From Patescibacteria group bacterium (GTDB taxonomy: Bacteria; Patescibacteriota; Minisyncoccia; Phycocordibacterales; UBA9973): a DNA stretch of 64,000 bases. The stretch lies in contig JAZJXT010000001.1 of assembly GCA_040390725.1 (NCBI GenBank), positions 6,896 to 70,895 on the forward strand. Reading direction: 5' to 3'. The position numbers and the translations under genes are program-made. Position 1 is the stretch's first letter, and each line of letters starts with the position of its first letter. Under the pieces are notes generated by a model. It searched no databases. It worked only from the letters and a program-made list of their open reading frames with translations, and was not told the DNA's origin. Below, piece by piece: positions 2,107-50,137 of this stretch.

Positions 2107-2134
2107 TTGACATTATTTTTTAATTTGCTAGTAT
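2107..2134 (+). promoter_or_regulatory. Promoter AATTTGACATT-N-TTTGCTAGTAT upstream of tuf
   Basis: TTGACA-N16-TAGTAT. Nearly the same module lies at 13623-13650 upstream of rpsS. Confidence 0.45.
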
Positions 2135-2263: not shown

Positions 2264-3457
<1,194 letters not shown>

Positions 3458-3467: not shown

Positions 3468-3497
3468 CCCGATGTCGGACATATGTCCGACATCGGG
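3468..3497. repeat. Perfect 30-bp palindrome cccgatgtcggacat|atgtccgacatcggg (family copy 1)
   Basis: Read directly from the sequence. Further copies lie at 16448-16488 (full) and 41707-41726 (one arm). No U-tract follows. Confidence 0.8.
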
Positions 3498-3505: not shown

Positions 3506-3898
3506 ATGACAACAGAAGAAACAAAAATAAAAAAAGTGAAAACAGCAAAGGCAAAGTCTTCTTCTAAAAAAGAAAAGACTGGCGATGAGGGAGCAGTTGT
3601 TCTTCGCATCAGAGTTCGTGCTTACGAGAGCAAGATCTTGGATGCGTCGGTAAAGCAAATCATCGACACGGCTATGCGTTATGATGCAAAGATTGTAGGA
3701 CCAGTACCTCTTCCGACTGAGATAAAAAAATACACGGTGAACCGCGCTTCTTTTATTTACAAAAATGCGCGAGAACAATTCGAAATGCGAATACACAAAA
3801 GAGTTATCGACATTTTGAATCCCGGAGCAAAGACAATCGAGGCGCTTACCAATTTATCTTTACCTTCCGGTGTTGATATTGACGTAAAGATGCTATAA
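3506..3898 (+). CDS. rpsJ: 30S ribosomal protein S10 (N-terminal Lys-rich extension)
   Basis: LRIRVRAYE...GPVPLPT...REQFEMRIHKRVIDI matches the S10 core. Confidence 0.92.
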   Translation: MTTEETKIKKVKTAKAKSSSKKEKTGDEGAVVLRIRVRAYESKILDASVKQIIDTAMRYDAKIVGPVPLPTEIKKYTVNRASFIYKNAREQFEMRIHKRVIDILNPGAKTIEALTNLSLPSGVDIDVKML

Positions 3899-3905: not shown

Positions 3906-4529
3906 ATGAAATTCATTCTTGGAACAAAAGAAAATATGACGGAGTATTTCTCTGAAGACGGCACAGTTATTCCTGTGACTATTATTTCAGCTGGCCCTGT
4001 GATTGTGACTCGTGTTTTTGAGGCGTCTAAGGACGGATACAATGCAGTGCAGGTAGGCTTTGGAACTCAAAAAGACAGCAGAATTGCAAAAGCTCAAAAG
4101 GGTGAGAAGGCTCAAATGAAAGGTGGACTTTACAGAACTTTGAAAGAATTCAGATTAAAACCTACTGATACTAATGATGCAAAAGAAGGCGATGTTATTG
4201 ATGTTTCCGCTTTTGCTCCGGGTGATAAATTACAAGTTTCCGGTGTTTCAAAAGGTAAAGGTTTTCAAGGTGTTGTCAAAAGACACGGTTTCGGGGGAGG
4301 TCCTCGTACACACGGTCAAAAGCACTCTGAAAGAGAGCCGGGAAGTATCGGAGGAGGTCTTCGTACACACGTGCCAAAAGGCATGCGTATGGCTGGTAGA
4401 ATGGGTTCCGATAGAATTACTTACAAGAATTTGAAAGTTGTTTACGTTGATCAAGAAAATAACGTTATGCTTATCAAAGGCGCATTACCAGGAAAGAGAG
4501 GTACTTTAATTGAAATAGTTTCAAGATAA
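3906..4529 (+). CDS. rplC: 50S ribosomal protein L3
   Basis: ILGTKENMTEYFSEDGTVIPVTII...GKGFQGVVKRHGF matches L3. Confidence 0.93.
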   Translation: MKFILGTKENMTEYFSEDGTVIPVTIISAGPVIVTRVFEASKDGYNAVQVGFGTQKDSRIAKAQKGEKAQMKGGLYRTLKEFRLKPTDTNDAKEGDVIDVSAFAPGDKLQVSGVSKGKGFQGVVKRHGFGGGPRTHGQKHSEREPGSIGGGLRTHVPKGMRMAGRMGSDRITYKNLKVVYVDQENNVMLIKGALPGKRGTLIEIVSR

Positions 4530-4533: not shown

Positions 4534-5193
4534 ATGGAAGCAAAAATATACAATCAGAAAGGGGTAGAAGCAGGGAAGATAACTCTTCCGGCAAAAGTTT
4601 TTTCCGCAAAATGGCGCGCTGACTTGGTGCACCAAGTTGTAGAAGGAATGCGTTCAAACAAGCGCGCTGGCACAGCTGACACAAAAGGACGCGGTGAAGT
4701 TCGTGGAGGAGGCAAGAAGCCTTGGAAACAAAAAGGTACAGGACGCGCTCGTCACGGATCTTCTCGTTCACCTATCTGGGTGGGTGGAGGTGTCACACAC
4801 GGTCCTTTGGCTGAGAAAAATTACAAGAGAAAAATCACTCGCAGTATGCGCGCGCAAGCATTGTTCTCAGTGCTTTCCAAGAAATTCAAAGACGGCGAAA
4901 TTATTTTTGTTGATACTCTGGCACCATCTGACATTAAGACAAAAACAGCTTTGGAAACAATGAAGAATTTATCAAAAGCAACAGGCGCAAAGCCATTGGC
5001 AAATTCAAAGAAGCCTAGAGTTTTGGTGGCATTGGGAGGACGCAGTGAAAAGACTGAAAAAAGTTACCGCAATTTGCCTCAGCTCGAAATAGCTTTTCTT
5101 AAAAATATAAACCCGTTAGACGTTTTGAATTATCAATATCTTTTAATCGAGAATCCGGAAGAATCCGTAAAGTTTTTGGAGGCCCGCGGTTAA
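4534..5193 (+). CDS. rplD: 50S ribosomal protein L4
   Basis: Position in the S10 operon plus an L4-like sequence (KPWKQKGTGRARHGS). Confidence 0.9.
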   Translation: MEAKIYNQKGVEAGKITLPAKVFSAKWRADLVHQVVEGMRSNKRAGTADTKGRGEVRGGGKKPWKQKGTGRARHGSSRSPIWVGGGVTHGPLAEKNYKRKITRSMRAQALFSVLSKKFKDGEIIFVDTLAPSDIKTKTALETMKNLSKATGAKPLANSKKPRVLVALGGRSEKTEKSYRNLPQLEIAFLKNINPLDVLNYQYLLIENPEESVKFLEARG

Positions 5194-5206: not shown

Positions 5207-5491
5207 ATGTCAAAAATAATTTCAATGAAAATAATAAATAAGCCGAGAGTTACCGAGAAGTCTTCTATGTTAGCAGAAGCGAATATTTACAGTTTCAATG
5301 TTGCAAAGAGTACCACAAAAAGTGAAATCAAAAAGGCAATTTTTGAACTTTACAAAGTAAAGCCTGTCAAAGTAAATACGATTTCATTTGCCGGAAAGAA
5401 GATAACAGTACGCGGTAAAAAAGGAGTAAAAGCGGGAGGCAAGAAAGCTTTCGTTTATTTGAAAAAAGGGGATAAGATAGAAGTAATTTAA
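5207..5491 (+). CDS. rplW: 50S ribosomal protein L23
   Basis: Operon position, 94 aa, L23-like. Confidence 0.85.
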   Translation: MSKIISMKIINKPRVTEKSSMLAEANIYSFNVAKSTTKSEIKKAIFELYKVKPVKVNTISFAGKKITVRGKKGVKAGGKKAFVYLKKGDKIEVI

Positions 5492-5502: not shown

Positions 5503-6351
5503 ATGAAAACATACAAACCTACAAGTAAATCAAGAAGACAAATGACCAACGTCACTTATCGTGGTGTTCTGACAAAAACAGAACCTACGAAATCTTTGAC
5601 GCACGGTTTCCGCCGATCAGTCGGACGCAATAGCCAAGGACGCATTACCACTCGCCACAAAGGTGCAGGACACAAGCGTTTGTATCGCGATGTTGATTTC
5701 TTATACGATAAAAAAGATATTCCTGCGAAGATAACATCCGTAGAATACGATCCAAACCGTTCCGCATTCATCGGACTCGCTGTTTATGCTGATGGTGAAA
5801 AGAGATATGTAGTTCTTCCTAAGTCAGTAAGACCTGGAGACAAATTTCTAGTTTCCGAAAAAGCAGAAGTTTCCACAGCAAACAGATTACCTTTGAAAAA
5901 TATTCCTGTCGGTACTTTTGTTTACAATGTTGAGATAAAGCCTCGCGGTGGAGCAAAGATAGGCCGTTCAGCGGGAATCTTCGCGCAAGTTGTGGCAAAT
6001 GCTGACGGTTATACAAACTTGAAAATGCCTTCTACTGAAGTTCGCAAAGTTTCTGAGAATTGTTGGGCATGCGTAGGTACAGTTTCAAACGAAGAACATC
6101 ATTTGGAAAATTACGGTAAAGCGGGACGTTCTCGATGGAAAGGTATTCGTCCGACAGTTCGTGGTACTGCTATGAACCCTGTGGATCACCCATACGGAGG
6201 AGGTGAAGGCCGACAAGGACGCGGAACAAAGCGACCAAAAACAATGTGGGGTAAAGTTACCGGAGGACGCAAGACCAGAACTCCAAAGAAATATTCAAAC
6301 GTATTCATCGTCTCTCGCCGAAAGACAGGCAAGTCTCGAAAATCTCAATAA
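5503..6351 (+). CDS. rplB: 50S ribosomal protein L2
   Basis: HKGAGHKRLYR and GTAMNPVDHPYGGGEG motifs. Confidence 0.95.
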   Translation: MKTYKPTSKSRRQMTNVTYRGVLTKTEPTKSLTHGFRRSVGRNSQGRITTRHKGAGHKRLYRDVDFLYDKKDIPAKITSVEYDPNRSAFIGLAVYADGEKRYVVLPKSVRPGDKFLVSEKAEVSTANRLPLKNIPVGTFVYNVEIKPRGGAKIGRSAGIFAQVVANADGYTNLKMPSTEVRKVSENCWACVGTVSNEEHHLENYGKAGRSRWKGIRPTVRGTAMNPVDHPYGGGEGRQGRGTKRPKTMWGKVTGGRKTRTPKKYSNVFIVSRRKTGKSRKSQ

Positions 6352-6358
6352 CATCCAT

Positions 6359-6383
6359 AAAAAGCGCCGATTGGCGCTTTTTA
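6359..6383 (+). terminator. Rho-independent terminator hairpin aaagcgccGATTggcgcttttt after rplB
   Basis: 8-bp GC stem, 4-nt loop and a T-run. An almost identical hairpin lies at 7106-7130. Confidence 0.6.
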
Positions 6384-6444
6384 GTTAACTATATTTTATT
6401 TATTGCCTATTGCAAAAGATTATATAAAATAATATAATTGAAAG

Positions 6445-6795
6445 ATGAGTGAACAATTGGGCATGAGTAATAATTCAAAACCACTAGAAAAATCAAATGA
6501 TTTATCATTTGATCCATTTAACCTTAACCTTGCCCCAATACAAATAGGAACTTCACAAGTTAATGGTAATAAACTATTTCAAGATCACGTTGTAATAGCA
6601 TACAGAATGCTTGCATCAGGAGATAAAAAAATAACTTATAAGTCAATTGTTGAAAAAATTATAGAACTTTACCACTACCCTAATGATAAACTTTTACACG
6701 ACTCAATAGGGAAAATTTTTAGTAAATTAGATCTCGATACTAATAAAGTGCTTAGGTATAATGATTTAGAAGATAAATTCAAACCATTTAGTTAG
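6445..6795 (+). CDS. hypothetical protein (116 aa)
   Basis: ORF lying between the duplicated terminators. No recognisable domain. Confidence 0.5.
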   Translation: MSEQLGMSNNSKPLEKSNDLSFDPFNLNLAPIQIGTSQVNGNKLFQDHVVIAYRMLASGDKKITYKSIVEKIIELYHYPNDKLLHDSIGKIFSKLDLDTNKVLRYNDLEDKFKPFS

Positions 6796-6833
6796 ATAGA
6801 AACTTTCAAGGATAGTCCTTTAGAAAGAAAATT

Positions 6834-6866
6834 ACTTAAAACAGAGCGATCGCAGAAAATTAAGTT
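6834..6866. repeat. 33-bp dispersed repeat (copy 2 of the 841-873 element)
   Basis: acttaaaacagagcgatcgcagaaaattaagtt. Confidence 0.6.
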
Positions 6867-6924
6867 CTTTGCGTGTTTTTAGTTTTTATTTGGTGGTTTT
6901 TTGCTTGTGTGATATAATGTTGGA

Positions 6925-7095
6925 ATGATAACTGATTTTGTATTGAAACAATTAAATAAAGCTAAATACAAGACATTAGCAGACGGCACTTGTTTTGCTT
7001 CTATTCTCGGAATTAAAGGTGTTTGGGCAAATGCAAAGAATAAAAAACTTTGCCAAAAAGAACTACAAGAAGTACTTTCAGAATTCTCTCAATAA
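6925..7095 (+). CDS. small hypothetical protein (56 aa), probably leaderless
   Basis: Extended -10 tgATATAAT at 6910-6918 lies 6 nt upstream of ATG 6925. The ORF is below the ORF-track size cutoff. Its stop lies 10 nt upstream of the terminator hairpin. Confidence 0.35.
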   Translation: MITDFVLKQLNKAKYKTLADGTCFASILGIKGVWANAKNKKLCQKELQEVLSEFSQ

Positions 7096-7105
7096 TAATA
7101 TCCCT

Positions 7106-7130
7106 AAAAAGCGCCAATTGGCGCTTTTTA
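7106..7130 (+). terminator. Rho-independent terminator hairpin aaaagcgccAATTggcgctttt (duplicate of 6359-6383)
   Basis: Same stem sequence as the rplB terminator; the loop differs by 1 nt. Confidence 0.55.
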
Positions 7131-7159
7131 GCTTTTTGTGTTATATTTAAAGGGCTTTT

Positions 7160-7915
7160 ATGGAAACACAGAAAAATATAGTGATAATAGGCGGTGGAGT
7201 GATGGGCGAATGTATCGCTTCAGCTATTTTGAGTGCAAAAAATAATTGGAAGGTTGGTGTTATTGGAAGAAATGACAATAAAACAAAAATTCAAAATGCG
7301 GACGTGATTATTTTAGCTGTAAAGCCTCAGTCATTTTTAGAATTGGCAAAAGAAATAAAAGGGTTCGTGCCGAAGAATGCTTTATGTATTTCTGTGATGG
7401 TAGGTATAACTTTGGCGAGTATCAAAAAAGAATTGGGAGTTGAGAGGGTTATCCGCTCAATGCCGAACTTGGGCGCGCGGATTTTAGAATCAATGACCGT
7501 CTGGACTGGGACAAAAAATTTAACAAAAATAGATAAAACTTTTGCCGAGGAACTTTTTTCACTATTAGGGAAAAATGTTTATGTGAAAAATGAAGATATG
7601 GTGGACAAGGCTACAGCAGTAAACGGCAGTGGTCCGGGTTTTATGTTTTCATTTATTGAAAGTTACATCGAGGGTGCAGTAAAGCTCGGTTTTTCTAAAA
7701 AAGACGCGACCATTTTTGCTAAGCAAGTTTTGAAAGCTACAAATACTTTATTGCAAGAAAAAAATACAGATGTAAAAACTTTGCGCGAACAAGTGACTTC
7801 AAAAGGAGGCACGACAGAAGCAGGATTAAAAATATTAATGGATAAATCTTTTAAAAATAAAATTTCCGGTGCTTTAGAAAAAGCATATAAACGTGCGAAA
7901 GAATTATCAAAATAA
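7160..7915 (+). CDS. proC: pyrroline-5-carboxylate reductase
   Basis: N-terminal Rossmann GGGVMG, AVKPQ, and C-terminal VTSKGGTTEAGL motif. Confidence 0.85.
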   Translation: METQKNIVIIGGGVMGECIASAILSAKNNWKVGVIGRNDNKTKIQNADVIILAVKPQSFLELAKEIKGFVPKNALCISVMVGITLASIKKELGVERVIRSMPNLGARILESMTVWTGTKNLTKIDKTFAEELFSLLGKNVYVKNEDMVDKATAVNGSGPGFMFSFIESYIEGAVKLGFSKKDATIFAKQVLKATNTLLQEKNTDVKTLREQVTSKGGTTEAGLKILMDKSFKNKISGALEKAYKRAKELSK

Positions 7916-7919
7916 ATTT

Positions 7920-9002
7920 ATGCGATTAGTAATAAAAATAGGAACATATGCAATATTTAACGAGAAAGGTCTCGATCTTTCTCGTATTAAACAGATAACG
8001 AGTGAGATAGCTGAACTAATGAAAATGGGACATGAAGTTATTTTGGTTAGTTCTGGTGCTGCTGGATACGGAATGCATAAAATTCCAGAGCTCGGTCCTC
8101 CATTCAGGAAAAAAATTTGGGCATCAGTCGGTCAGCCTATGATATTTAATAGTTATATGCGTGAAGCCGAAGAACATGGTTTTTCTGTCGGGCAAATGCT
8201 TTTACTTCGCGATGATTTTACTAATCGTGAAAGTTTTTCTAACATGACCGGTGTCATCGAATCAATGCTCGCATTTAAAATTTTACCAATACTAAATGAA
8301 AATGATGTTTTAAAAACTGAAGATTTAACGGTGGGGGACAATGATATTTTATCTGCAATGGTGGCCATAGCTTTGTCTGCTGATAAGCTAATAATAATAA
8401 CCAATAAAGATGGGCTATTTAGTGATAACCCAGACAAGAATAAAGATGCGGAATTAATAAAAGTTGTTTCCGATATTGATTTCGAAATCGAGAAATTTTG
8501 TTCAAAAGAAAAATCAAATCTCGGTACGGGCGGAATGCTTTCGAAAGTTCGCGCCGCGAAGCATGCAGTTTCTTCCGGGGTGGAAGTACTCTTAGGTAAC
8601 GGTACAAAAAAAGGAATAATTTTATCTACTTTGGAAAAAGATTTTTATGGTACGAGGTTTGTACCTAGTGAAAAAATTTCTATGAATGAAGCAAAGAGGT
8701 GGATGATGGCGACAAAAGGTGTAGGGCTGTTGGCTATTGATGACGGTGCGATAGAGGCTTTGCGTGGGGGCAAGAGTTTGCTTTTACCGGGGCTTATTTC
8801 CGCTAAGGGAGAATTTTCTGCGGGAGAGATAGTGGAAGTTGTTTCAAAATTCGGGCAAGCGGTAGCATATGGCAGAGTTAATTATCCTGCAAATGAAATA
8901 AAAAAAGCTATAATTACTCAGAAAAAATCACTAGAGAAAGGCGTGAGAATTTTAGAAAAAGAAATAATTCATCGTGATTATATGGTAATCTTAAAGAAGT
9001 AA
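7920..9002 (+). CDS. proB: glutamate 5-kinase (with C-terminal PUA domain)
   Basis: MRLVIKIGT...VILVSSGAAGYG kinase motifs. The start is moved from the ORF-track 7893 to ATG 7920 to remove the overlap with proC. Confidence 0.85.
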   Translation: MRLVIKIGTYAIFNEKGLDLSRIKQITSEIAELMKMGHEVILVSSGAAGYGMHKIPELGPPFRKKIWASVGQPMIFNSYMREAEEHGFSVGQMLLLRDDFTNRESFSNMTGVIESMLAFKILPILNENDVLKTEDLTVGDNDILSAMVAIALSADKLIIITNKDGLFSDNPDKNKDAELIKVVSDIDFEIEKFCSKEKSNLGTGGMLSKVRAAKHAVSSGVEVLLGNGTKKGIILSTLEKDFYGTRFVPSEKISMNEAKRWMMATKGVGLLAIDDGAIEALRGGKSLLLPGLISAKGEFSAGEIVEVVSKFGQAVAYGRVNYPANEIKKAIITQKKSLEKGVRILEKEIIHRDYMVILKK

Positions 9003-9016
9003 ATTGAAATAGAATT

Positions 9017-10273
9017 ATGGATAAAAAACTTTTAAAACAATTACAGAATGCAAAAACTGCTTCAGCAGAGCTCGGGCTTCTTTCTGGTGCGAAAAGAAAT
9101 TTAATTTTAAAAAACTTGGCGCAACTTTTACGCAAGAATAAAAAATTAATTATTTCTGCCAATCAAAAAGACGCAAAGAATTTTGACATTAATAACCCGA
9201 TGCGCGATAGGTTGCTCTTAAATGATGAACGCATCGAAGGCATGGCAAAAGAAATCGAAGGCATTATTGCATTGCCTGACCCAATAGGCGAGCTTTTTGA
9301 TTGCAGAGAAAGAGGTGAGTTAAATATTTGCAGGAAACGAGTACCGCTTGGCGTAGTTGGAATTATCTACGAATCTCGCCCAAATGTGACGACGGATGTC
9401 TCGGCTATTTGTATCAAGTCTGGCAATGCAGCTGTATTAAAAGGCGGAAAAGAAGCTCGAAATAGCTATATTGTTTTACATAATTTAATTAAAAAAGCAT
9501 TTGTTTCTGCTGGTGCAAATCCTGATGCGATACAATTTATTGACCCGAAAGACAGGGAAATAGTAAATCAAATTATCAAAGCTAATGATTATATAGATAT
9601 GATAATTCCTCGTGGAAGTCATCGCTTGATAAGTTTCGTTCGTGATAATGCCACAGTGCCTATGATAGAAACAGGCGCTGGAGTTTGCCACACATTTGTG
9701 GATGAAAGTGCGAAATTAATTCCTTCAGCAAAAATAATTTTCAATGCCAAAACTCAAAGACCCAGCGTGTGCAATGCGTTGGATACTTTGCTCGTGCATA
9801 AAAAAATAGCTGAAAAGTTTTTGCCAATGACTGCGAAACTTCTAGCTGAAAAAGAAGTGGAGATTTTTGCCGATGCTGAGAGTTTTAAAATTTTGAAAAA
9901 TGTTTATCCTAATAATCTTTTGAAAAAAGCAGTAGAGGCTGACTTTGGTAGGGAATTCTTGAGTCAAAAAATGTCTGTAAAAATTGTCTCCGGTGTGGAT
10001 GAAGCTATAAAACACATTAGTAAATTTTCTTCCAAACATTCCGAAGCCATTCTTTCTGAAAATAAACAAAATTGCCAAAAGTTTTTGGATAAAATAGATT
10101 CTGCTGTTGTATATGTAAATGCTTCCACTCGTTTTTCTGATGGGGCGGTTTTTGGATTGGGTTCTGAAATAGGGAATTCCACTTCCAAGCTTCACGCTCG
10201 TGGCCCGATGGGCCCGAAAGAGATAACCACTTACAAATGGATTGTAAAAGGTAAATATTCTACGAGAAAATAA
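9017..10273 (+). CDS. proA: gamma-glutamyl phosphate reductase (glutamate-5-semialdehyde dehydrogenase)
   Basis: VPLGVVGIIYESRPNVTTD...LKGGKEA with catalytic Cys region; 418 aa. Confidence 0.88.
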   Translation: MDKKLLKQLQNAKTASAELGLLSGAKRNLILKNLAQLLRKNKKLIISANQKDAKNFDINNPMRDRLLLNDERIEGMAKEIEGIIALPDPIGELFDCRERGELNICRKRVPLGVVGIIYESRPNVTTDVSAICIKSGNAAVLKGGKEARNSYIVLHNLIKKAFVSAGANPDAIQFIDPKDREIVNQIIKANDYIDMIIPRGSHRLISFVRDNATVPMIETGAGVCHTFVDESAKLIPSAKIIFNAKTQRPSVCNALDTLLVHKKIAEKFLPMTAKLLAEKEVEIFADAESFKILKNVYPNNLLKKAVEADFGREFLSQKMSVKIVSGVDEAIKHISKFSSKHSEAILSENKQNCQKFLDKIDSAVVYVNASTRFSDGAVFGLGSEIGNSTSKLHARGPMGPKEITTYKWIVKGKYSTRK

Positions 10274-10276
10274 AAA

Positions 10277-12058
10277 ATGCAAAACAAAAATTGCCAAAAT
10301 TGTAAAAAAGATTTTACTGTAGACCAGGAAGATTTTAATTTTTACGAAAAAATGAAAGTTCCAGTTCCGACATTTTGTCCTATGTGCAGGGTGCAGAGGA
10401 GGTTTACATTTAGGAATGAACGCGTGCTTTACAAGAGGAAATGTGATTTTTCTGGTGAGGAAATTTTTTCAATGTATGCATCGGATTCTCCAGTAAAAAT
10501 TTATGAACGAGATATTTGGCTTTCTGATAAATGGGATGCATTGGACTATGGCAGAGACATTGATTGGTCCAGGCCGTTTTTGTCTCAGCTCTATGAACTC
10601 ATGCTTCAGGTGCCTTTTAAATCAAATAATGTTATTCGTGGAGTAAATAGTAATTATTCTAACAATGCCACTGACCCAAAAAATTGTTATTTAGTTTTTA
10701 ATACTACTAGTCCGGAGGATTGTATGTATTCAAATGGTGTAAATTTCTCACGGGACTGTGTGGACGTGTCACATGTTTCCAAGGCGGAAGGTTGTTACCA
10801 GAGTTTTTGGCTCAGTGGATGTTTTAAGACTCACTACTCTTCTCAGTGTGCAGAGTCCAGTGATTTATGGTTTTGTAAAGATTGCCAGGGATGCATGAGT
10901 TGTTTTGGTTGTGTTGATTTAGTTAATAAAAATTATTATTTTTTTAATCAAAAATGTAGTAAAGAAGAATATGAAAAAAAAGTAAAAGAATATAATCTTC
11001 ACACCAGAGAGGGGATTAAAAAAGCACAAGACGAGGCACTCGCTTTTTGGAAGAAATTCCCTAATAAGAATTTTCAAGGCGTAAAGAATTTAAATTGTAC
11101 TGGTTCTTATGTGACTAACTCTAAAAATGTACATGACTCTTTTCTCGTACGTGAAGGAGAAAATCTACGATACTGCCAATATTTACAAGAAATGCCAGCT
11201 CCAAAAGATTGTTATGATTATTCGGGCTGGGGTTCAGGTGCTGAAATGGTATACGAAGCAGTGTCCACTGGATCAAATGCTCAAAATGTAAAATTTACGT
11301 GGCTAACTCAAGAGAATGTGCATGATATGGAATATACAATGGCTTGTTCAAACGGCTCTCAAAATTTATTTGGCTGTGTGGGATTACGCCATAAAGAGTA
11401 TTGTATTTTAAATAAAAAATATACAAAAGAGGAATATGAAATTTTAATTGAAAAAATAAAAAAACATATGGATGAGATGCCTTATGTGGATAAAGTTGGT
11501 CGTGTATATAAATACGGAGAGTTTTATCCTGCTGAAATGAGTCCTTGGGCATACAATGAAACTATTGCATATGAATATTTTCCTTTAACTAAAGAGGAAG
11601 CTCTCGCGAAAGGCTACAGATGGCGTGATCCAGATGCAAAAGATTATACGCCTACAATTTTAGCAGAAAATATACCGGTAGATATCATAAAGGTAGATGA
11701 CTCAATCACGGGAGAGGTATTTGAATGTGCCCACAAGAGGGAATGCAATCATAATTGTACAAAAGCATTTCGGATTATTCCAAATGAATTAAATTTTTAT
11801 AGAAAAATAGGTGTTCCTTTGCCTACTTTGTGTCCCGCTTGTCGTACAATGGAGAGGTTAAAAATGCGTTTAGGTGTAGAACTTTATGATAGGAATTGCA
11901 TGTGTACTGGAGAATTTTCAGAAGATAAAGAATATAAAAATTCAGTTTCTCATACTCACGGCAACAGTCATTGTGAAAACAAATTTAAAACAGGATACAA
12001 TCCGACAAAGAAGGATATAGTCTACTGTGAGCAGTGTTATCAGCAAGAGGTATATTAA
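10277..12058 (+). CDS. Cys-rich zinc-ribbon protein of unknown function (593 aa)
   Basis: N- and C-terminal CxxC...FYxKxxVPxPTxCPxCR zinc-ribbon modules are duplicated, and internal FGCVxL...KEEYE repeats are present. Confidence 0.65.
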   Translation: MQNKNCQNCKKDFTVDQEDFNFYEKMKVPVPTFCPMCRVQRRFTFRNERVLYKRKCDFSGEEIFSMYASDSPVKIYERDIWLSDKWDALDYGRDIDWSRPFLSQLYELMLQVPFKSNNVIRGVNSNYSNNATDPKNCYLVFNTTSPEDCMYSNGVNFSRDCVDVSHVSKAEGCYQSFWLSGCFKTHYSSQCAESSDLWFCKDCQGCMSCFGCVDLVNKNYYFFNQKCSKEEYEKKVKEYNLHTREGIKKAQDEALAFWKKFPNKNFQGVKNLNCTGSYVTNSKNVHDSFLVREGENLRYCQYLQEMPAPKDCYDYSGWGSGAEMVYEAVSTGSNAQNVKFTWLTQENVHDMEYTMACSNGSQNLFGCVGLRHKEYCILNKKYTKEEYEILIEKIKKHMDEMPYVDKVGRVYKYGEFYPAEMSPWAYNETIAYEYFPLTKEEALAKGYRWRDPDAKDYTPTILAENIPVDIIKVDDSITGEVFECAHKRECNHNCTKAFRIIPNELNFYRKIGVPLPTLCPACRTMERLKMRLGVELYDRNCMCTGEFSEDKEYKNSVSHTHGNSHCENKFKTGYNPTKKDIVYCEQCYQQEVY

Positions 12059-12118
12059 TTAGTTGCTTTAAATATAATTATTCTAGCGTGTAGTCAATAA
12101 ATATGTTAAATTAAGTTT

Positions 12119-12472
12119 ATGGGAATAATAATTTTAGACAAACAAATAGGAATGGACGAAGTGAAAGAACTCGCAAAAAGCTGGTATGGCACAATGATAA
12201 AAGGTGCGGTTGATATTATGGACGGGCGGGTAGCTCTAGGCGGGGATTATCATATTGAAGACTCTGAAATGCTTACAAGCACAGGTTCAAAATTTGAAAA
12301 TGTTTGGGGCTTTAATATAAGATTTGAAGAAAATGAAAACGGTGTTTTAGAATTTGATTCTATGGTAAATATCAAGCCAAATCTCGGCAATCGTTCTCGA
12401 AATATCAGTGACCCGGAAGTTATAAAAAAAGGCGAAGAAATAATTTACAAACTTATTAAATTTGTCAGTTAG
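12119..12472 (+). CDS. hypothetical protein (117 aa)
   Basis: ORF only. Confidence 0.45.
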   Translation: MGIIILDKQIGMDEVKELAKSWYGTMIKGAVDIMDGRVALGGDYHIEDSEMLTSTGSKFENVWGFNIRFEENENGVLEFDSMVNIKPNLGNRSRNISDPEVIKKGEEIIYKLIKFVS

Positions 12473-12785
12473 TTTTTTTTGTAATTTTATGGAGAAAAAT
12501 TCTTTATTTTACATGGCAAATCTTTACCCAGAAATAGGGCGACTTTTTTCTTTTTATGATTCTGGGAAAAATGAAGCGGCAGAAAATGCAAAGACCAGGG
12601 CGTTAGGCATAGTTGATCAAATATTATCTTTTCGAGATATTATCCCTGCTGGACGTGAAGAATGGAGTGTTATTAAAAATTTTATTTTAGGTTATCAAAA
12701 CCTTGATTCATACGAACGAAGAATTTTGGAAAAATACGCCGAGCCGTTTTCCTATAAATTTATGAATCAGTATTCTTCGGTATAA
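12462..12785 (+). CDS. hypothetical protein (107 aa)
   Basis: ORF only; overlaps the previous ORF by 11 nt. Confidence 0.4.
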   Translation: MSVSFFCNFMEKNSLFYMANLYPEIGRLFSFYDSGKNEAAENAKTRALGIVDQILSFRDIIPAGREEWSVIKNFILGYQNLDSYERRILEKYAEPFSYKFMNQYSSV

Positions 12786-12789
12786 AAAA

Positions 12790-13569
12790 TTAAACTTTAA
12801 ATATAATTCCAACCAGGTATCCTACAAAAGCGGAGAGCATTCCTATCAAGAGCATTTTTATAGCTTCTTTCATGAAATTTCTGCCTAGGGTGACTTTTGC
12901 TTTATAGTATCCCGCTGCGAATAAAACTCCCGCCGCTAAAATCAAACTAAAAATAGTGGCATATGTAATAGGAAGGAAAAAGTAAGCGGTCAGTGGAATA
13001 AATGATCCGATAAGAGCAGAAATGCCGACAAGGAAACCGGAAGGCAATGCTTGCTTGCGGTCTACACGCTGGAGTTTTAATTCTTGTTCCATCATTATTT
13101 TTAGCCAAATATCTTTATCACTCGTTATTTTTTTCACTATGTCTTCCAAGATTTCTCCTTCAAAACCATAATCTCGATATAGAACTCGGATTTCTTCCAC
13201 TTCACCTTCGGGCGCATTTTCTATTTCCCATTTTTCTCGTTCCATTTCGGATTGATAATAATCCGCTTCGGCGAGCTTGGATGTATAAGCAACTGCCGCC
13301 ATCGAGACACTTTCGGCAAATGTCGCGGCCAGTCCGGCGACGATGACGACTTTTGAAGAAGCTGTCGCGGCGGCGACACCTAGAATAACTCCCAAAACAT
13401 TTACCAAACCGTCCTGCCCGCCCAATATTATTTCCGGAAGGTTAAAACCTACAAGATGTTTTTCTTTATGTTCCGCATCTTTGTCCACAACATTTTTTAA
13501 ATGAGAAGCTTTTAATTTATTAATATCTTTTTCTAAATATGCTTTTCGGGCATCTTGTATCCTTGTCAT
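12790..13569 (-). CDS. VIT1/CCC1-family iron/manganese transporter
   Basis: GGQDGLVNVLGVILGVAAA motif and C-terminal transmembrane helices typical of the VIT family. Confidence 0.78.
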   Translation of the reverse strand: MTRIQDARKAYLEKDINKLKASHLKNVVDKDAEHKEKHLVGFNLPEIILGGQDGLVNVLGVILGVAAATASSKVVIVAGLAATFAESVSMAAVAYTSKLAEADYYQSEMEREKWEIENAPEGEVEEIRVLYRDYGFEGEILEDIVKKITSDKDIWLKIMMEQELKLQRVDRKQALPSGFLVGISALIGSFIPLTAYFFLPITYATIFSLILAAGVLFAAGYYKAKVTLGRNFMKEAIKMLLIGMLSAFVGYLVGIIFKV

Positions 13570-13622
13570 GGTTGGATTATAACATATTATTGTTTTGTTC
13601 TACTTCTCATGAAGCCATAAAT

Positions 13623-13650
13623 TTGACATTTTAGCTGTATTTGCTAGTAT
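13623..13650 (+). promoter_or_regulatory. Promoter TTGACA-N16-TAGTAT upstream of rpsS (same module as 2107-2134)
   Basis: aatttgacatt...tttgctagtat is shared with the tuf promoter. Confidence 0.45.
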
Positions 13651-13688
13651 GGGTATCAGCTCGATTTCGGGCTTTTTATTTAATAGAA

Positions 13689-14036
13689 ATGACAAGATCA
13701 ATCAAAAAAGGAATAAATGTCGACGAAAAATTGCTAAAGAAAATAGCGGGTAAAAACCCATTGGAAACAGCAATGATCAAGACATGGAAAAGAGCTTGTC
13801 AGATAGCCCCTGAGATGGTTGGTTTCGTTTTTGGTGTTTACAATGGCAAGGTTCATATCGAAGTATTAGTTACTGAAGACATGGTAGGACACAGATTGGG
13901 TGAATTTTCTCCTACAAAGAAATTCTTGAAACACGGAGGAAAGATGCAAAAGGAAATGGAGCAGAAAAAGAAAGAAGCTGAAATAACAGCAGCTAAAGGA
14001 GCGACAGCAGCCGCAGCTGACACAAAGAAGAAATAA
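13689..14036 (+). CDS. rpsS: 30S ribosomal protein S19 (Lys/Ala-rich C-terminal extension)
   Basis: MTRSIKKG...IKTWKR...VYNGKVHIEVLVTEDMVGHRLGEF. The ORF-track start at 13641 is an alternative-start artefact; the true ATG is 13689. Confidence 0.9.
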   Translation: MTRSIKKGINVDEKLLKKIAGKNPLETAMIKTWKRACQIAPEMVGFVFGVYNGKVHIEVLVTEDMVGHRLGEFSPTKKFLKHGGKMQKEMEQKKKEAEITAAKGATAAAADTKKK

Positions 14037-14045
14037 AATAATCAT

Positions 14046-14444
14046 ATGAAAGCCTTTTTGAAAAATTATAGACAGTCCCCAAGAAAAGTCCGCCTTGTAG
14101 CGGGTCTTGTTCGTGGTAAAGACGTTTCTGAAGCTTTGGTAGAATTGGATTTCTTGGCGAAGCGCGCAGGTGAACCGATTCAGAAATTGATTAAATCCGC
14201 AGTTGCAAATGCAAAACAAATCGGTTTAGACGCTGAGAATTTATTTATAAAAGAAATTACAGTTGATAAAGGGATAGTCATGAAAAGAATGATGCCTGCA
14301 GCCATGGGTTCCGGACACAGAATAAACAAGAGAACGAGCCACATCAATGTAGTGCTCGCAGAAAGAGTTGCAAAAGTTAAAAAAGTAAAAACAGTTAAAG
14401 CAAAAGTCGCAACAAAAAAAGTAGTTACAAAAAAAGCAAAATAA
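14046..14444 (+). CDS. rplV: 50S ribosomal protein L22 (Lys-rich C-terminal tail)
   Basis: L22 core and operon position. Confidence 0.9.
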   Translation: MKAFLKNYRQSPRKVRLVAGLVRGKDVSEALVELDFLAKRAGEPIQKLIKSAVANAKQIGLDAENLFIKEITVDKGIVMKRMMPAAMGSGHRINKRTSHINVVLAERVAKVKKVKTVKAKVATKKVVTKKAK

Positions 14445-14448
14445 TTTT

Positions 14449-15132
14449 ATGTCAAAAATAGTACACCCATATGCGCATAGATTAGTAATTCTCCGAGACT
14501 GGAAGTCTCGCTGGTTTGCTGAGCCTAAAAAATATTGTGATTTCTTAAAAGGGGATGTGCTTATTCGCGAGTACTTGGAAAAGAAATTGCGAGGAATGTA
14601 TCTTTCTTCTATTGAAATAGAAAGAAGTCAAAAGGCGACTCGTTTTATGATCAAGACTTCACGACCTGGTTTGATAATCGGCAGAAATGGTGAAGGCGCG
14701 ACAAAACTAAAAGAAGAAATTTTGAAGAAAATGCAAAAGTTGAAACTTTCCAAGCCGGAAGAATTCAAATTGGAAATAATCGAAGTTACAAATCCTGAAT
14801 CTGATGCTGCTATCGTGGCTTATATGATCGCTGAAGGATTGGAAAAAAGAATGCCATATCGCCGAGTTATCAAGCAAGTTTTGGAAAAAGTTATGACTGC
14901 TCGTGGCGTAGAAGGTGCCCGAGTTACTCTTTCCGGACGTCTTGGTGGAGCTGAAATTGCTCGTACGGAAGATTTGAAACGAGGTTCTATCCCGCTTCAG
15001 ACTTTCCGCGCGGATATTGATTTCAAGCGAGAAAAAGCGCATTTGCCTTATGGTGATGTGGGTATAAAAGTTTGGATTTACCGAGGTAAGATTTTTTCTG
15101 AAAAGAAAAAGCAAGAAGTAGTAAATAATTAA
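14449..15132 (+). CDS. rpsC: 30S ribosomal protein S3
   Basis: KH domain and an S3 C-terminal domain. Confidence 0.93.
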   Translation: MSKIVHPYAHRLVILRDWKSRWFAEPKKYCDFLKGDVLIREYLEKKLRGMYLSSIEIERSQKATRFMIKTSRPGLIIGRNGEGATKLKEEILKKMQKLKLSKPEEFKLEIIEVTNPESDAAIVAYMIAEGLEKRMPYRRVIKQVLEKVMTARGVEGARVTLSGRLGGAEIARTEDLKRGSIPLQTFRADIDFKREKAHLPYGDVGIKVWIYRGKIFSEKKKQEVVNN

Positions 15133-15141
15133 TATAAATAT

Positions 15142-15570
15142 ATGTTAGTACCAAAAAAAGTAAAATTTAGAAAGTGGCAGACAGGACGCATGAACAAAAA
15201 GGCGATGACTGCAGATACCCGCGGAACAAAATTAGCCTTCGGTTCTTTCGGATTGAAAGCCGAGACTCAAGCTCGCGTCAAATCAAATCAAATAGAATCC
15301 GCCCGCAAGGCAATGTCTCGCGCACTTACAAAAGCCGGCAAATATTGGATCCGTATTTTTCCTGACAGACCTTATACAGCAAAAGCCGCAGAAGTAGGTA
15401 TGGGAAAGGGAAAGGGTGATCCGCAAGGGTATTGTTTTGAGGTTTTTCCTGGACGCATAATTTTCGAAGTTGATGGAATAGATGAAAAAATAGCACGTGA
15501 AGCCTTGAGAAAAGCTGGTACAAAATTGCCGATCAAGTTTAGAATAGTTTCCAGAGTTAAAAAACAATAA
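15142..15570 (+). CDS. rplP: 50S ribosomal protein L16
   Basis: MLVPKKVKFRK start typical of L16. Confidence 0.93.
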   Translation: MLVPKKVKFRKWQTGRMNKKAMTADTRGTKLAFGSFGLKAETQARVKSNQIESARKAMSRALTKAGKYWIRIFPDRPYTAKAAEVGMGKGKGDPQGYCFEVFPGRIIFEVDGIDEKIAREALRKAGTKLPIKFRIVSRVKKQ

Positions 15571-15579
15571 TAAAATTAT

Positions 15580-15771
15580 ATGGCAAAAAAAGTTGAAAAT
15601 TTAAAAGGAATGAAAAAAGCGGAACTCGAGTCTACTCTCGCTACTTTACGAGAAAATGTACGAGGAATAATGTTTAAGGCTGAAGGTTCAAAATCAAAAA
15701 ATGTGAAAGAATTAGCAACCTTAAAAAAACAAATCGCCCGAGTAATGACAGAGTTAAACAAAAAGAAATAA
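15580..15771 (+). CDS. rpmC: 50S ribosomal protein L29
   Basis: 63 aa, operon position. Confidence 0.82.
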   Translation: MAKKVENLKGMKKAELESTLATLRENVRGIMFKAEGSKSKNVKELATLKKQIARVMTELNKKK

Positions 15772-15774
15772 TTT

Positions 15775-16050
15775 ATGAAAAAAGCAACAACAAAAACAAA
15801 TACAGAAAGTACGGAAAACAAAGGCACAGTTTTAAAAGGTACAGTTGTTTCCGACAAGATGAACAAGACAATTGTCGTTTCCGTTTCTCGTTTTATCAAG
15901 CACCCTAAATACGGCAAGTTTTATCAGAAGAATAAAAAGTACAAGGTGCATGATGAAAATAACACATACAAAGTAGGTGATAAAGTAGAAATAATAGAAA
16001 CACGACCAATTTCAAAAGATAAAAAGTTTAAAGTTTTAGAAAAGAATTAG
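15775..16050 (+). CDS. rpsQ: 30S ribosomal protein S17
   Basis: S17 OB fold; operon position. Confidence 0.88.
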
Positions 16051-16068
16051 AAAATTTAATTTAAATTT

Positions 16069-16440
16069 ATGATACAACCAGAAACATTAGTAAAAATAAC
16101 AGACAATGCCGGAGGCACTATCGGAAAAGTGTTCAAGGTTTTAGGCAGTGCTCACAAGAGATACGCTACTCTAGGCGAGCTTGTTATTATTTCCGTCAAA
16201 GTCGCTTCACCTCGTAAGGGAGTTAAGAAGAAAGATGTGCATCAGGCAGTCGTTGTACGTACTCGCAATGCTTATCGCCGAAAGGACGGTTCATACATTC
16301 GTTTTGATGACAACGCTGTAGTTATTTTGGAAAAAGGAAAGAAAGATCCAAAAGCAGGACGCGTATTCGGACCTATCCCTCGTGAGCTCGCTGAGAAAGG
16401 TTTTCAGAAGATTATTTCTTTGGCACCGGAAGTTATTTAA
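16069..16440 (+). CDS. rplN: 50S ribosomal protein L14
   Basis: MIQPETLVKITDNAG start typical of L14. Confidence 0.95.
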   Translation: MIQPETLVKITDNAGGTIGKVFKVLGSAHKRYATLGELVIISVKVASPRKGVKKKDVHQAVVVRTRNAYRRKDGSYIRFDDNAVVILEKGKKDPKAGRVFGPIPRELAEKGFQKIISLAPEVI

Positions 16441-16447
16441 AAATAGC

Positions 16448-16488
16448 CCCGATGTCGGACATATGGAAACCATATGTCCGACATCGGG
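16448..16488. repeat. Palindrome family copy 2: 19-bp arms cccgatgtcggacatatgg / ccatatgtccgacatcggg with loop aaa
   Basis: Read directly from the sequence, between rplN and rplX. Confidence 0.8.
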
Positions 16489-16503
16489 ACAAAAGAAAAA
16501 CAT

Positions 16504-16809
16504 ATGAAATTAAAAAAAGGAGACAATATAATAATCATCACAGGAAAAGACAAAGGCAAGAAAGGTAAAATTACCAAAGTTTTTCCTGATTTAAACAAAG
16601 TCGTAGTAGAAGGCGCAAATACAATGAAGAAGCACCAACGTCCTAGAAAGTCCGGCGAAAAAGGCCAGATGGTTTCCATTTCTATGCCGATGCATGCTTC
16701 CAATGTAATGATTGCAGATCCAAAATCAGGCAAGCCTTCCAAGATCGGCAAGAAAAAAGTAGGCGATAAAATGGTCAGAATCGCCCGAAAAAGTAAACAA
16801 GAAATTTAA
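16504..16809 (+). CDS. rplX: 50S ribosomal protein L24
   Basis: MKLKKGDNIIIITGKDKGKKGKITKV. The ORF-track start at 16474 lies inside the palindrome; the true ATG is 16504. Confidence 0.88.
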   Translation: MKLKKGDNIIIITGKDKGKKGKITKVFPDLNKVVVEGANTMKKHQRPRKSGEKGQMVSISMPMHASNVMIADPKSGKPSKIGKKKVGDKMVRIARKSKQEI

Positions 16810-16814
16810 AAAAT

Positions 16815-17381
16815 ATGAAACACTTAACCGTAAAAGAAAAAGAAGCAGAGGCATTTTCAAAAATGAAAGGTACTTTTGGTTACAAGAATGCAATGTCTGC
16901 GCCAAGATTAAAAAAGATAGTTATCAACGTAGGCACAGGCACCGCTGTTAAAAAAGATAAAAACAAAAATACTGCAATTGCAGAACGTTTAACAAAAATA
17001 ACAGGCCAGAAGCCAGCTCTTCGCGGAGCAAAGCAATCTATTGCATCTTTCAAAATCCGTCAGGGCGACCCTGTAGGTATCGTGGTTACTCTTCGTGGCA
17101 AGAGAATGTATGCTTTCTTGGAAAAATTAATTAACGTATCTCTTCCTCGTACAAAAGACTTCCGTGGTATCAATCGCACAACTGTGGACAGTATTGGAAA
17201 CCTTACTCTCGGCATCAAGGAACACACTATTTTCCCTGAAACAGCTGATGAAGACATCAAAGACGTATTCGGTATGGCTATCACCATGGTATCCTCGGCA
17301 AAAACTAAACCCGAAGGTTTCGCATTTTTCGAATTGCTAGGTATTCCTTTTAAAAAGGAAGAGGCAGGTAAGAAAAAATAA
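16815..17381 (+). CDS. rplE: 50S ribosomal protein L5
   Basis: L5 signature and operon position. Confidence 0.93.
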   Translation: MKHLTVKEKEAEAFSKMKGTFGYKNAMSAPRLKKIVINVGTGTAVKKDKNKNTAIAERLTKITGQKPALRGAKQSIASFKIRQGDPVGIVVTLRGKRMYAFLEKLINVSLPRTKDFRGINRTTVDSIGNLTLGIKEHTIFPETADEDIKDVFGMAITMVSSAKTKPEGFAFFELLGIPFKKEEAGKKK

Positions 17382-19362: not shown

Positions 19363-19375
19363 TTTGTTTTATTGT

Positions 19376-19449
19376 CCGCCCTCTTGGATTCGAACCAAGG
19401 ACCCCAGAGGTATAAGCTCTGTGCTCTAACCAACTGAGCTAAGGGCGGA
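19376..19449 (-). tRNA. tRNA with anticodon loop CUUAUAC (anticodon UAU, Ile-type)
   Basis: Folded by hand into a cloverleaf: acceptor CCGCCCT/AGGGCGG, D arm GCTC-AGTTGGTTA-GAGC, anticodon stem CAGAG/CTCTG, T arm CTTGG-TTCGAAT-CCAAG. No CCA is encoded. Confidence 0.7.
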
Positions 19450-19530: not shown

Positions 19531-19640
19531 TAATTTTTTAACTATATAGAATATAATAGTTTATGCGACATTTTGCAAGCTATTCAATTTAAGAAATTCC
19601 TCTTTTCCCTTTGAAACTTTCTCGGTGAGTGATACAATAT

Positions 19641-41706: not shown

Positions 41707-41726
41707 CCCCGATGTCGGACATATGG
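41707..41726. repeat. Palindrome family copy 3 (single arm ccccgatgtcggacatatgg)
   Basis: Left arm only; the partner arm is absent. Lies 3' of recG. Confidence 0.6.
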
Positions 41727-49444: not shown

Positions 49445-49529
49445 TTTAAAACTGCGGAAGCGGTGAGATTCGAACTCACGGTCCGGTTAGGGACGACGGT
49501 TTAGTAAACCGTTGATTTAAGCCACTCAT
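49445..49529 (-). tRNA. type II (long variable arm) Ser-like tRNA; anticodon loop reads UUACUAA (anticodon ACU if canonical)
   Basis: Folded by hand: acceptor GGAAGCG/CGCTTCC, discriminator G, 3-bp D stem, anticodon stem ACGGT/ACCGT, 16-nt variable arm, T arm GTGAG-TTCGAAT-CTCAC. No CCA is encoded. Confidence 0.65.
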
Positions 49530-49934
49530 CCACGCTTCCAATATACAGTTGTCAGGATTCCGCGGATGAGTGGCTCTCTCGCTTTGCTCGCGGGTGAAAG
49601 CAAAGTAGTTTGCTTTCACCCCATCTCATCCACGCTTCCAATACTTAATTTTTTTCGGATTTTTAAACTTAAAAATCCGATTGCGGGACACTCGAGTTAA
49701 GTACCCACGCGTTCAACTACCGTAAGGGTATTCTAGCATATTTTATGGTGGCAAAACTAGGCACTCGGGTCGCTAGGCGGTTTTTCAAAATGAGACAAAT
49801 GAGACACTAAATGTGTTTTTTGTGTTTGTGTCTCATTTTTGTCTAGGCAAAAACTTACCCACTTAATTATTTGACTATAATATCTTTTATTTGTTATCAT
49901 TAAACTATTATAATTTTAAAAAAAGTTAATAATC

Positions 49935-50137
49935 TCCTCCCAGAGTCGATTTAGGGACCATCTTCATTAAGACCGGAGGTGCGCTATCAGGGGTCGGGGA
50001 TCCCTGCCAGGTAGGTATCATTGGGAAGCTACCATTTCATCTTACATTCAATTGATCAATCAATCCATGTAGGTTGCGATGGTAGCATTCTAGAGCTTCT
50101 TCGCAAACTGCAATTCGTAAGAGTGCAGTTTTTTTTA
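49935..50137 (+). ncRNA. Candidate structured small RNA, GC-rich for this genome, ending in a hairpin plus T8 terminator
   Basis: Stems cctcc/ggagg, caggg/ccctg, gctaccat/atggtagc; terminal ctgca...tgcag followed by tttttttt at 50108-50137. Confidence 0.25.

Follow-up and report, generated by a model that had tools for sequence, protein, structure and literature searches.

Split of the S10 operon between rplB and rpsS by a 7.3-kb gene block in a Paceibacteria genome

We analysed a stretch of 64 kb of DNA (hereafter the window; GC content, i.e. guanine plus cytosine, 0.374) from a Paceibacteria genome (Patescibacteria, candidate phyla radiation, CPR) in which the S10 ribosomal-protein operon is split. 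Instead of being immediate neighbours, rplB and rpsS are separated by 7,337 nucleotides (nt) holding nine open reading frames (ORFs). An insertion of 7.3 kb at this point was claimed in an original prediction made from the letters of the sequence, and the claim was borne out, as the interval 6352-13688 runs exactly from the rplB stop to the rpsS ATG. It is likely that rplB|rpsS is a permissive boundary between operons in a Paceibacteria clade, and that the window represents an extreme case of it. The adjacency of rplB and rpsS is among the most stable in bacteria, and blocks of ribosomal-protein genes serve as single-copy syntenic markers for the binning and phylogenomics of uncultivated lineages.

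Gene order at the split and in relatives

The canonical S10 operon of Escherichia coli has the order rpsJ-rplC-rplD-rplW-rplB-rpsS-rplV-rpsC-rplP-rpmC-rpsQ. All eleven genes are present in the window in this order and on the plus strand (Pfam), and the same gene complement and order thus flank the break. Gene identities were taken from the ORF listing and from Pfam and NCBIfam scans of the window, and the genes on the two sides of the break are the following.

907-2103, plus strand: aminotransferase, in the upstream block
2264-3457, plus strand: tuf (EF-Tu; Pfam/NCBIfam)
3506-3898, plus strand: rpsJ (S10; Pfam/NCBIfam)
3906-4529, plus strand: rplC (L3; Pfam/NCBIfam)
4534-5193, plus strand: rplD (L4; Pfam/NCBIfam)
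5207-5491, plus strand: rplW (L23; Pfam/NCBIfam)
5503-6351, plus strand: rplB (L2; Pfam Ribosomal_L2_N and L2_C), the final gene ahead of the break
13689-14036, plus strand: rpsS (S19; Pfam), starting at ATG 13689
13689-17381, plus strand: rpsS-rplV-rpsC-rplP-rpmC-rpsQ-rplN-rplX-rplE, the resumed half of the cluster (Pfam)

The resumption from rpsS through rplE in order, also part of the original prediction, is confirmed by the Pfam matches, and this block is collinear with the 160 loci fetched for comparison. Where the window has the aminotransferase, the relatives show a second, weak EF-Tu-like match about 3 kb 5' of tuf, which is taken to be fusA.

The 160 loci were obtained with the L2 protein of the window as a query against GTDB species representatives and JGI metagenomes. 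Loci with L2 identity of at least 55% formed a Paceibacteria-like set, which includes 16 loci with a measured rplB-rpsS distance and three more without rpsS; 132 loci from the same query with L2 identity below 55% (Firmicutes, Chloroflexi and others) formed the comparison set of other bacteria. A junction was counted as expanded when the gap was at least 300 nt. The exact L2 protein of the window is not on record, and the genome and metagenome scans gave only relatives of at most 90% identity. The L2 of the four nearest loci is 88-90% identical to that of the window (L081 90%; L001, "Candidatus Nomurabacteria", 89%; L082 and L002, the latter labelled "Paceibacterota", 88%).

Among the other bacteria the median rplB-rpsS gap was about 2 nt and only 1 of the 132 gaps was expanded, that of L038, a metagenome-assembled genome (MAG) labelled Saccharibacteria, in agreement with the strong conservation of this adjacency stated in the original prediction. 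In the Paceibacteria-like set half of the measured gaps (8/16) were 447-1,092 nt long, and in the three further loci no rpsS was found in the remaining 630, 715 and 9,991 nt after rplB. The other thirteen junctions of this set were expanded in 0-2 loci each. The interruption had been described as unusual and likely lineage-specific, and the difference between the two sets bears this out; it is, however, not unique to the window genome, but a recurrent junction of the clade at which the content differs from locus to locus:

L006: DagK
L007: MazE/MazF
L009: DUF3298 protein, on the opposite strand
L082 and L004: unknown ORFs
L081 and L001: GC-rich DNA with no convincing ORF
L088: three pilins, a UppP-like protein, a DEAD-box helicase and more
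L085: rpsL

The contents of the gaps are mutually non-homologous, and the sole similarity is in the last 60-120 nt, which contain the putative rpsS promoter and leader. Full disconnection is also found in the relatives, as L088 has no rpsS within 9,991 nt of rplB and in L085 rplB is followed by rpsL. Among the loci where rpsS still follows, the insert of the window is the largest seen at rplB|rpsS.

The gaps of L001 (10089-10944) and L081 (10840-11297) have a GC content of 0.47-0.50, versus 0.38-0.40 for their loci. Permissive Rfam searches of these two gaps gave chance-level matches only, and they may hold structured RNAs or decayed genes. Elsewhere in the cluster, a gap of 1.4 kb lies between rpsJ and rplC in L010 (169-1578) and one of 3.2 kb between rplX and rplE in L005 (7110-10380). 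A further candidate for a split, L032 (Clostridia), was rejected: about 300 nt separate rplB and rplV in a frameshift-ridden contig, and rpsS is therefore probably present there and degraded in the assembly.

Predicted transcription signals at the boundary

Sequence signals that relatives share at this junction are found on both edges of the spacer. A perfect palindrome of A-tract, GC hairpin and T-tract resembling an intrinsic terminator begins 7 nt past the rplB stop, and the whole stretch of 75 nt after the stop, hairpin included, folds with -19.0 kcal/mol (RNAfold). On the other side, a strong predicted promoter of the sigma-70 type with an extended -10 element precedes rpsS and is nearly identical to the one predicted for tuf.

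2107-2134, plus strand: predicted promoter of the tuf-rpsJ-rplC-rplD-rplW-rplB unit, TTGACA-N16-TGcTAGTAT (consensus match)
6338-6402, plus strand: copy 1 of a duplication of ~60 nt, comprising the final rplB codons TCTCAATAA and the terminator-like palindrome (repeat family, 82% identity)
6358-6384, no strand assigned: terminator-like palindrome AAAAAGCGCC-GATT-GGCGCTTTTT
7087-7149, plus strand: copy 2 of the duplication, 82% identical to copy 1, with a second terminator-like palindrome at 7104-7131
13623-13650, plus strand: predicted promoter of the rpsS-...-rplE unit, TTGACA-N16-TGcTAGTAT (consensus match)
13658-13680, plus strand: leader hairpin AGCTCG-ATTT-CGGGCT followed by a T-run, between the promoter and the rpsS ATG (hairpin scan)

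The pattern TTGACA-N13-TGNTAGTAT has two matches in the window, at 2107 and 13623, with 0.01 expected by chance. When the region from 300 nt 5' of tuf through the end of rplE was scanned for TTGAC-N17-19-TANNAT, exactly two sites each were found in the window, L081, L001, L002 and L006, one 5' of tuf, equivalent in all of them, and one 19-51 nt 5' of rpsS. Sites of this type lie 19-124 nt 5' of rpsS in L081, L001, L002, L082, L004, L006, L008, L010 and L005. Counted over the eleven relatives of highest L2 similarity in which rpsS is retained, ten have the predicted rpsS promoter. The terminator-like hairpin is found directly 3' of rplB in the window and in L081, L001, L002, L082, L006, L008, L009, L088, L094 and L083, and it is absent in L010, L005, L086, L087, L090 and L011. 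In L002, L005 and L010 the rplB-rpsS gap is only 54-132 nt and the putative rpsS promoter is still present, in L002 together with the terminator-like hairpin, which suggests that the transcriptional boundary exists without an insert.

The predicted terminator at 6358-6384 and the predicted promoter at 13623-13650 argue against transcription across the split as a single unit. Although the original prediction was right that the gene order is interrupted, the break is probably a boundary between operons and not a broken transcription unit. If rplB|rpsS is indeed an inter-operon spacer, DNA could be gained or lost there without uncoupling the expression of the ribosomal genes, and the permissiveness of the site would then be what makes it a hot spot. 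The terminator-like palindrome has just two copies in the window and was rejected as a dispersed repeat; one hairpin scan listed the second copy only.

A leader hairpin of the type AGCTC...GAGCT is found 6-9 nt past the -10 element of the putative rpsS promoter also in L081, L001, L002, L082, L006 and L004, and L008 has CGCTC...GAGCG, with both sides of the stem changed. The tuf leaders have an analogous hairpin (AACTGCA...TGCAGTT followed by Ts) and a conserved block, GCCTTAGCAACTGGTTCTCGTATGCTGAG. The rpsS and tuf leader hairpins match no Rfam family and could be 5' stabilisers or attenuators. At the Rfam gathering threshold the window gave two tRNAs and a LOOT RNA only; no ribosomal-protein leader was found in it, and the loci of seven relatives gave no match at all.

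In a rough neighbour-joining (NJ) tree of nine ribosomal proteins the window falls in a tight group with L082, L002, L001 and L081, and all five carry both the terminator-like and the promoter-like signal, with gaps of 132-7,337 nt. No promoter match was found in the deeper L086, L090 and L011, whose gaps measure 4-93 nt. That the split is ancestral for Patescibacteria, and not a derived insertion, is highly improbable. It would be in line with the presence of expanded junctions across a wide L2 divergence, from 64% to 90% identity. However, the gaps are 4-93 nt also when the deeper-branching L087 and L089 are counted with L086, L090 and L011, the two genes are adjacent in the other bacteria sampled, and the inserts are non-homologous between genomes.

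Integrity, contents and origin of the insert

The split is reproduced by a second assembler. A contig of 8,196 bp in the Logan assembly of run SRR26324628 (SRR26324628_7458) is 100% identical to positions 6282-14477 of the window and includes both junctions, with the final 70 nt of rplB, the complete interval, rpsS and rplV. The tetranucleotide profile of the insert correlates with that of the rest of the window at r=0.977, above 54 of 57 equal-sized windows, and its GC content is 0.351 versus 0.374. A chimeric join at either boundary, the objection that the original prediction raised against itself, is contradicted by the identical contig, by the native composition and by the resumption of the cluster on the same strand at the next gene of the operon. 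We consider misassembly very unlikely, that is, an assembly or binning artefact in which a chimeric contig or a repeat brought the 7.3-kb block into the operon. The source is a MAG, its contig was not found in the scanned genome and metagenome collections, the ~60-nt repeat lies near the left boundary, and the Logan contig ends within rplB and near the start of rpsC, hinting at graph branching in conserved genes. Yet both junctions were obtained base for base by a different assembler, two coordinated chimeric joins would have been required for the cluster to continue with precisely the following gene in the same orientation, and the composition of the insert is among the most typical of the window. 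Moreover, the terminator-like and promoter-like signals of the boundary are conserved at the same junction in relatives, and that junction is expanded in relatives from independent samples. A search with the exact S19 for independent copies recovered the Logan contig alone, and one with the exact L23 gave a contig of 1.1 kb, about 94% identical, which ends within rplB and is uninformative on the junction.

The cassette content given in the original prediction (hypotheticals, proC-proB-proA, a Cys-rich protein, hypotheticals and a reverse-strand VIT transporter) matches the Pfam and NCBIfam results:

6445-6795, plus strand: ORF of 116 amino acids (aa), an ORFan, no family
6925-7095, plus strand: UPF0150 protein, 56 aa, HicB-like fold (Pfam PF21748, E=8.7e-13)
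7160-7915, plus strand: proC, pyrroline-5-carboxylate reductase (TIGR00112, 202.8 vs cut-off 196.75; Pfam P5CR_dimer)
7920-9002, plus strand: proB, glutamate 5-kinase with PUA domain (TIGR01027, 320 vs cut-off 186; Pfam AA_kinase and PUA)
9017-10273, plus strand: proA, glutamate-5-semialdehyde dehydrogenase (NF001221, 534 vs cut-off 289)
10277-12058, plus strand: Cys-rich protein of 593 aa (Cys593), no family, member of a large conserved Patescibacteria family
12119-12472, plus strand: DUF5674 protein (Pfam PF18924, E=1.2e-21)
12462-12785, plus strand: hypothetical ORF of 107 aa, no family, called as a gene in the Logan contig
12790-13569, minus strand: VIT1-family (vacuolar iron transporter-like) membrane protein (Pfam PF01988, E=1.5e-57)

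From this arrangement the insert would comprise at least four transcription units: the ORFan, the UPF0150 gene, proC-proB-proA-Cys593-DUF5674 with the 107-aa ORF, and the VIT1 gene on the opposite strand, convergent with the 107-aa ORF before it.

The left end stands apart from the rest. The 116-aa ORF is preceded by a promoter-like site (6410-6438) and sits in a stretch of 29% GC beside the UPF0150 gene, between the two copies of the rplB-terminator sequence. It has no Pfam, NCBIfam, PHROG or meaningful PADLOC match, and searches for homologues among 5.8 billion clusters and 1.84 billion representatives recovered only itself. A HicAB pair is therefore not recognised here: UPF0150 is present, and the ORF adjacent to it has neither a toxin family match nor homologues. 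The two copies of the duplication bracket this ORFan/UPF0150 module (6403-7093) and not the whole 7.3 kb, which suggests that the module arrived by a separate event. The insert was thus probably assembled by at least two events, whose number and order we infer.

ProB, ProA and ProC all exceed the curated NCBIfam equivalog cut-offs and make up a complete proline pathway. For proB an alternative start at GTG 7893 is possible, and TIGR01027 aligns from residue 1 of the form starting at ATG 7920. ProA has thousands of homologues, the nearest 70-75% identical, and those named by their sources are all from Paceibacterota/Patescibacteria or unclassified MAGs. Although the CPR lineage is generally poor in biosynthesis, the complete pathway deserves only a minor metabolic remark, since Paceibacterota and other Patescibacteria account for the overwhelming majority of the named ProA homologues. 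In two relatives the pro genes have the order proB (without PUA)-proC-proA, in unrelated neighbourhoods.

Cys593 is an exact match to a protein (locus tag V4439_00105) encoded on a contig of 274,923 bp of the NCBI MAG "Patescibacteria group bacterium". Its homologues number more than 7,700, nearly constant in length at about 593 aa and 55-79% identical, a high degree of conservation for a protein without an assigned function; the few named ones come from Patescibacteria/Paceibacterota or unclassified MAGs. Some genomes have several paralogues, L165 four. The protein has no Pfam, NCBIfam or PDB sequence match, and a Foldseek search of its AlphaFold2 model (pLDDT 74, pTM 0.60) against PDB gave no match at E<1. 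Its nearest homologues, at three loci, lie in three different contexts, and the two loci with ProA homologues likewise have unrelated neighbourhoods. Judging from these homologues, the conserved cargo is made up of ordinary chromosomal Paceibacteria genes that occur at scattered loci.

No homologue of any insert protein was found by tblastn in the 160 loci of the relatives. The nine ORFs hold no integrase, transposase, recombinase or relaxase domain, and there is no tRNA inside or beside the insert. The 107-aa ORF has no Pfam, NCBIfam, PHROG or PADLOC family match, and the insert as a whole gave no meaningful PHROG or PADLOC match, that is, no phage or defence signature; a phage or defence origin was rejected on these grounds.

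A horizontally acquired genomic island or mobile element, integrated in the S10 operon, is an unlikely origin of the block. Such an origin could be suggested by the left end, where an ORFan and an antitoxin-like UPF0150 gene of GC 0.29 are bracketed by the ~60-nt direct duplication, and by the MazEF toxin-antitoxin pair at the same junction in a relative (L007). Against it stand the lack of an integrase, transposase or relaxase, of a boundary tRNA and of repeats bracketing the whole 7.3 kb, the native tetranucleotide signature and the absence of meaningful PHROG and PADLOC matches; in addition, the named homologues of ProA and Cys593 occupy ordinary chromosomal loci and come from Paceibacterota/Patescibacteria or unclassified MAGs. 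Like genomic islands, the insert is a multi-gene block of unrelated functions at a conserved locus, with one small module that has direct repeats and an antitoxin-like gene; unlike them it has no recombinase, no att-type boundary repeat, no tRNA target and no compositional deviation.

The placement could also be adaptive, with proline synthesis and metal transport co-regulated with translation capacity, but we find this quite improbable. The genes from proC through the 107-aa ORF have the orientation of the S10 operon, and amino-acid genes (ilv-leu) have been inserted between str and S10 in other bacteria (PMC8046335). However, two predicted terminator hairpins and separate promoter-like sites would insulate the cassette from rplB, the VIT1 gene is on the opposite strand, relatives have wholly different genes or none at the site, and in other Paceibacteria the pro genes are found in unrelated contexts.

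The second boundary, rplE|rpsN, and known cluster rearrangements

A permissive inter-operon boundary, the explanation we favour, may not be limited to rplB|rpsS. In the window the cluster breaks again after rplE, a point absent from the original prediction. None of rpsN, rpsH, rplF, rplR, rpsE, rplO, secY and adk was found in the window, including its remaining 46 kb (17382-64000), and rplE is followed by:

17446-19362, strand not stated: ftsH, next after rplE
19374-19448, minus strand: tRNA-Ile

After the tRNA come an ORF of 3,121 aa and a type IV pilus cluster (pilins, PilB, PilC). The 3,121-aa ORF (19629-28994) has no Pfam match, and within the window its region deviates most strongly in tetranucleotide usage (r about 0.63 versus the rest).

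In L001 about 170 nt separate rplE from the run rpsN-rpsH-rplF-rplR-rpsE-rplO-secY-adk. Between rplE and rpsN there are about 700 nt in L081, about 1,070 nt in L002, where they hold a 107-aa ORF and a pilin, and about 1,180 nt in L007. In L010 (7733-9300) adk and map come next after rplE, and rpsN through secY are missing there. Together, the breaks at rplB|rpsS and rplE|rpsN mean that the cluster of the window is broken at two boundaries that vary across the clade, and its upstream neighbour differs too. A third predicted promoter of the same type is found 5' of rpsN in L081, L082, L001, L002, L004 and L008. The rpsN gene has a long leader of about 106-187 nt (L081, 15523-15667; L001, 14768-14902; L002, 15570-15724; L082, 15365-15580), a possible uncharacterised Paceibacteria ribosomal-protein leader RNA.

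According to the explanation that we prefer, the clade would have acquired promoters inside the cluster, ahead of rpsS and ahead of rpsN, and a terminator behind rplB. This would have divided the cluster anew into three modules, each with a promoter of its own ([tuf-rpsJ-rplC-rplD-rplW-rplB], [rpsS...rplE] and [rpsN...secY-adk]), and two junctions within it would have turned into inter-operon spacers, which could collect lineage-specific inserts and later undergo full disconnection. We put forward the wider version only tentatively: in a large Paceibacteria clade the S10-spc supercluster may have been rewired into three modules (tuf-rplB, rpsS-rplE and rpsN-secY), each with one and the same extended -10 promoter and a conserved short leader hairpin at its head, and the two new boundaries may be preferred landing sites for genes that enter or leave, such as ORFans, toxin-antitoxin pairs and pilins.

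Several points weigh against this explanation. Terminator and promoter are predicted functions, for which the evidence consists of consensus matches and folding energies, and the signals do not always accompany the inserts, since L009 has an insert without a recognisable promoter and the signals of L007 are ambiguous. The sample includes about 19 informative Paceibacteria-like loci, and the NJ tree that orders them is rough. Causality could also be reversed, with an ancient insertion that brought terminator and promoter and a secondary deletion in L002. The Logan contig includes only 70 nt of rplB and derives from the sequencing run that also gave the MAG, and thus tests the assembler and not the reads. 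Finally, the pro clusters of the relatives are not close counterparts of that of the window: identity is 75% for ProA, 52-55% for ProB and 36-37% for ProC, and the gene order differs, proC-B-A in the window versus proB-C-A in the relatives.

Compared to the S10 operon of E. coli, the window differs in the 7.3-kb distance between rplB and rpsS, in tuf heading the first unit, and in the predicted terminator after rplB and the predicted rpsS promoter. In addition, its second unit continues through rplN-rplX-rplE, across the S10/spc boundary.

Rearrangement of such clusters has been described in Gammaproteobacteria and Bacilli as a process of two steps, a small insertion and then full disconnection (Brandis 2021, PMC8046335), with ilvEBNC-leuABCD between str and S10 as documented cargo. 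The window resembles this pattern in having less than 10 kb of unrelated native genes between two collinear parts of the cluster on the same strand, amino-acid biosynthesis included. Both steps are recognisable as well: the inserts of relatives are small, that of the window reaches 7.3 kb, and L088, L085 and rplE|rpsN of the window show full disconnection. In that pattern the inserted genes do not stem from long-distance horizontal gene transfer, and the named ProA and Cys593 homologues and the native composition of the insert agree with it. The events highlighted in that study are between recognised operons or in the rpoBC operon, and its main text does not mention rplB or rpsS. The window differs in that the break is inside the canonical S10 operon, in CPR bacteria, at a recurrent junction with differing cargo and with a lineage-specific putative promoter and terminator. 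No account of an S10-operon split in Patescibacteria/CPR was recovered by full-text literature searches. We regard the split as a real and lineage-specific, extreme example of a known process, and as a recurrent, clade-wide phenomenon and not a one-off.

Other features were observed in the window. A palindromic element, CCGATGTCGGACATATG, is repeated at 3469-3496, 16449-16487 and 41709-41726: in the tuf|rpsJ spacer it folds as a perfect hairpin, in the rplN|rplX spacer as a hairpin with a 20-bp stem, and the spacer beside recG (41747-43981, minus strand) has a single half-site. The element is absent from all fetched Paceibacteria-like relatives, the only two single matches being in unrelated loci, and could be a genome-specific element similar to repetitive extragenic palindromes (REP-like), an operator or an RNA processing signal. 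The LOOT RNA (Rfam RF03000) is at 52866-52984 on the minus strand (89 bits, E=1.5e-15). A probable integrated mobile element is the stretch 49454-63352, of lower GC content (0.32-0.35), which starts at a tRNA-Ser (49454-49539, anticodon called ACT) and holds genes for a ParB-N6/N4 DNA methylase fusion (50160-51485), a helix-turn-helix (HTH) protein, a large serine recombinase (60792-62114) and DUF4238.

If rplB|rpsS and rplE|rpsN have indeed become permissive inter-operon boundaries in a whole CPR clade, this clade would exemplify a stepwise dismantling of an ancient operon, from an internal promoter to a terminator, small inserts and full disconnection. Odd genes or contig breaks in the ribosomal blocks of Paceibacteria MAGs would then not need to mean misassembly, and recent gene gain in these genomes could be sought, predictably, at the two boundaries. 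It would also imply a distinct transcriptional control and regulatory logic of ribosomal-protein synthesis in CPR bacteria.

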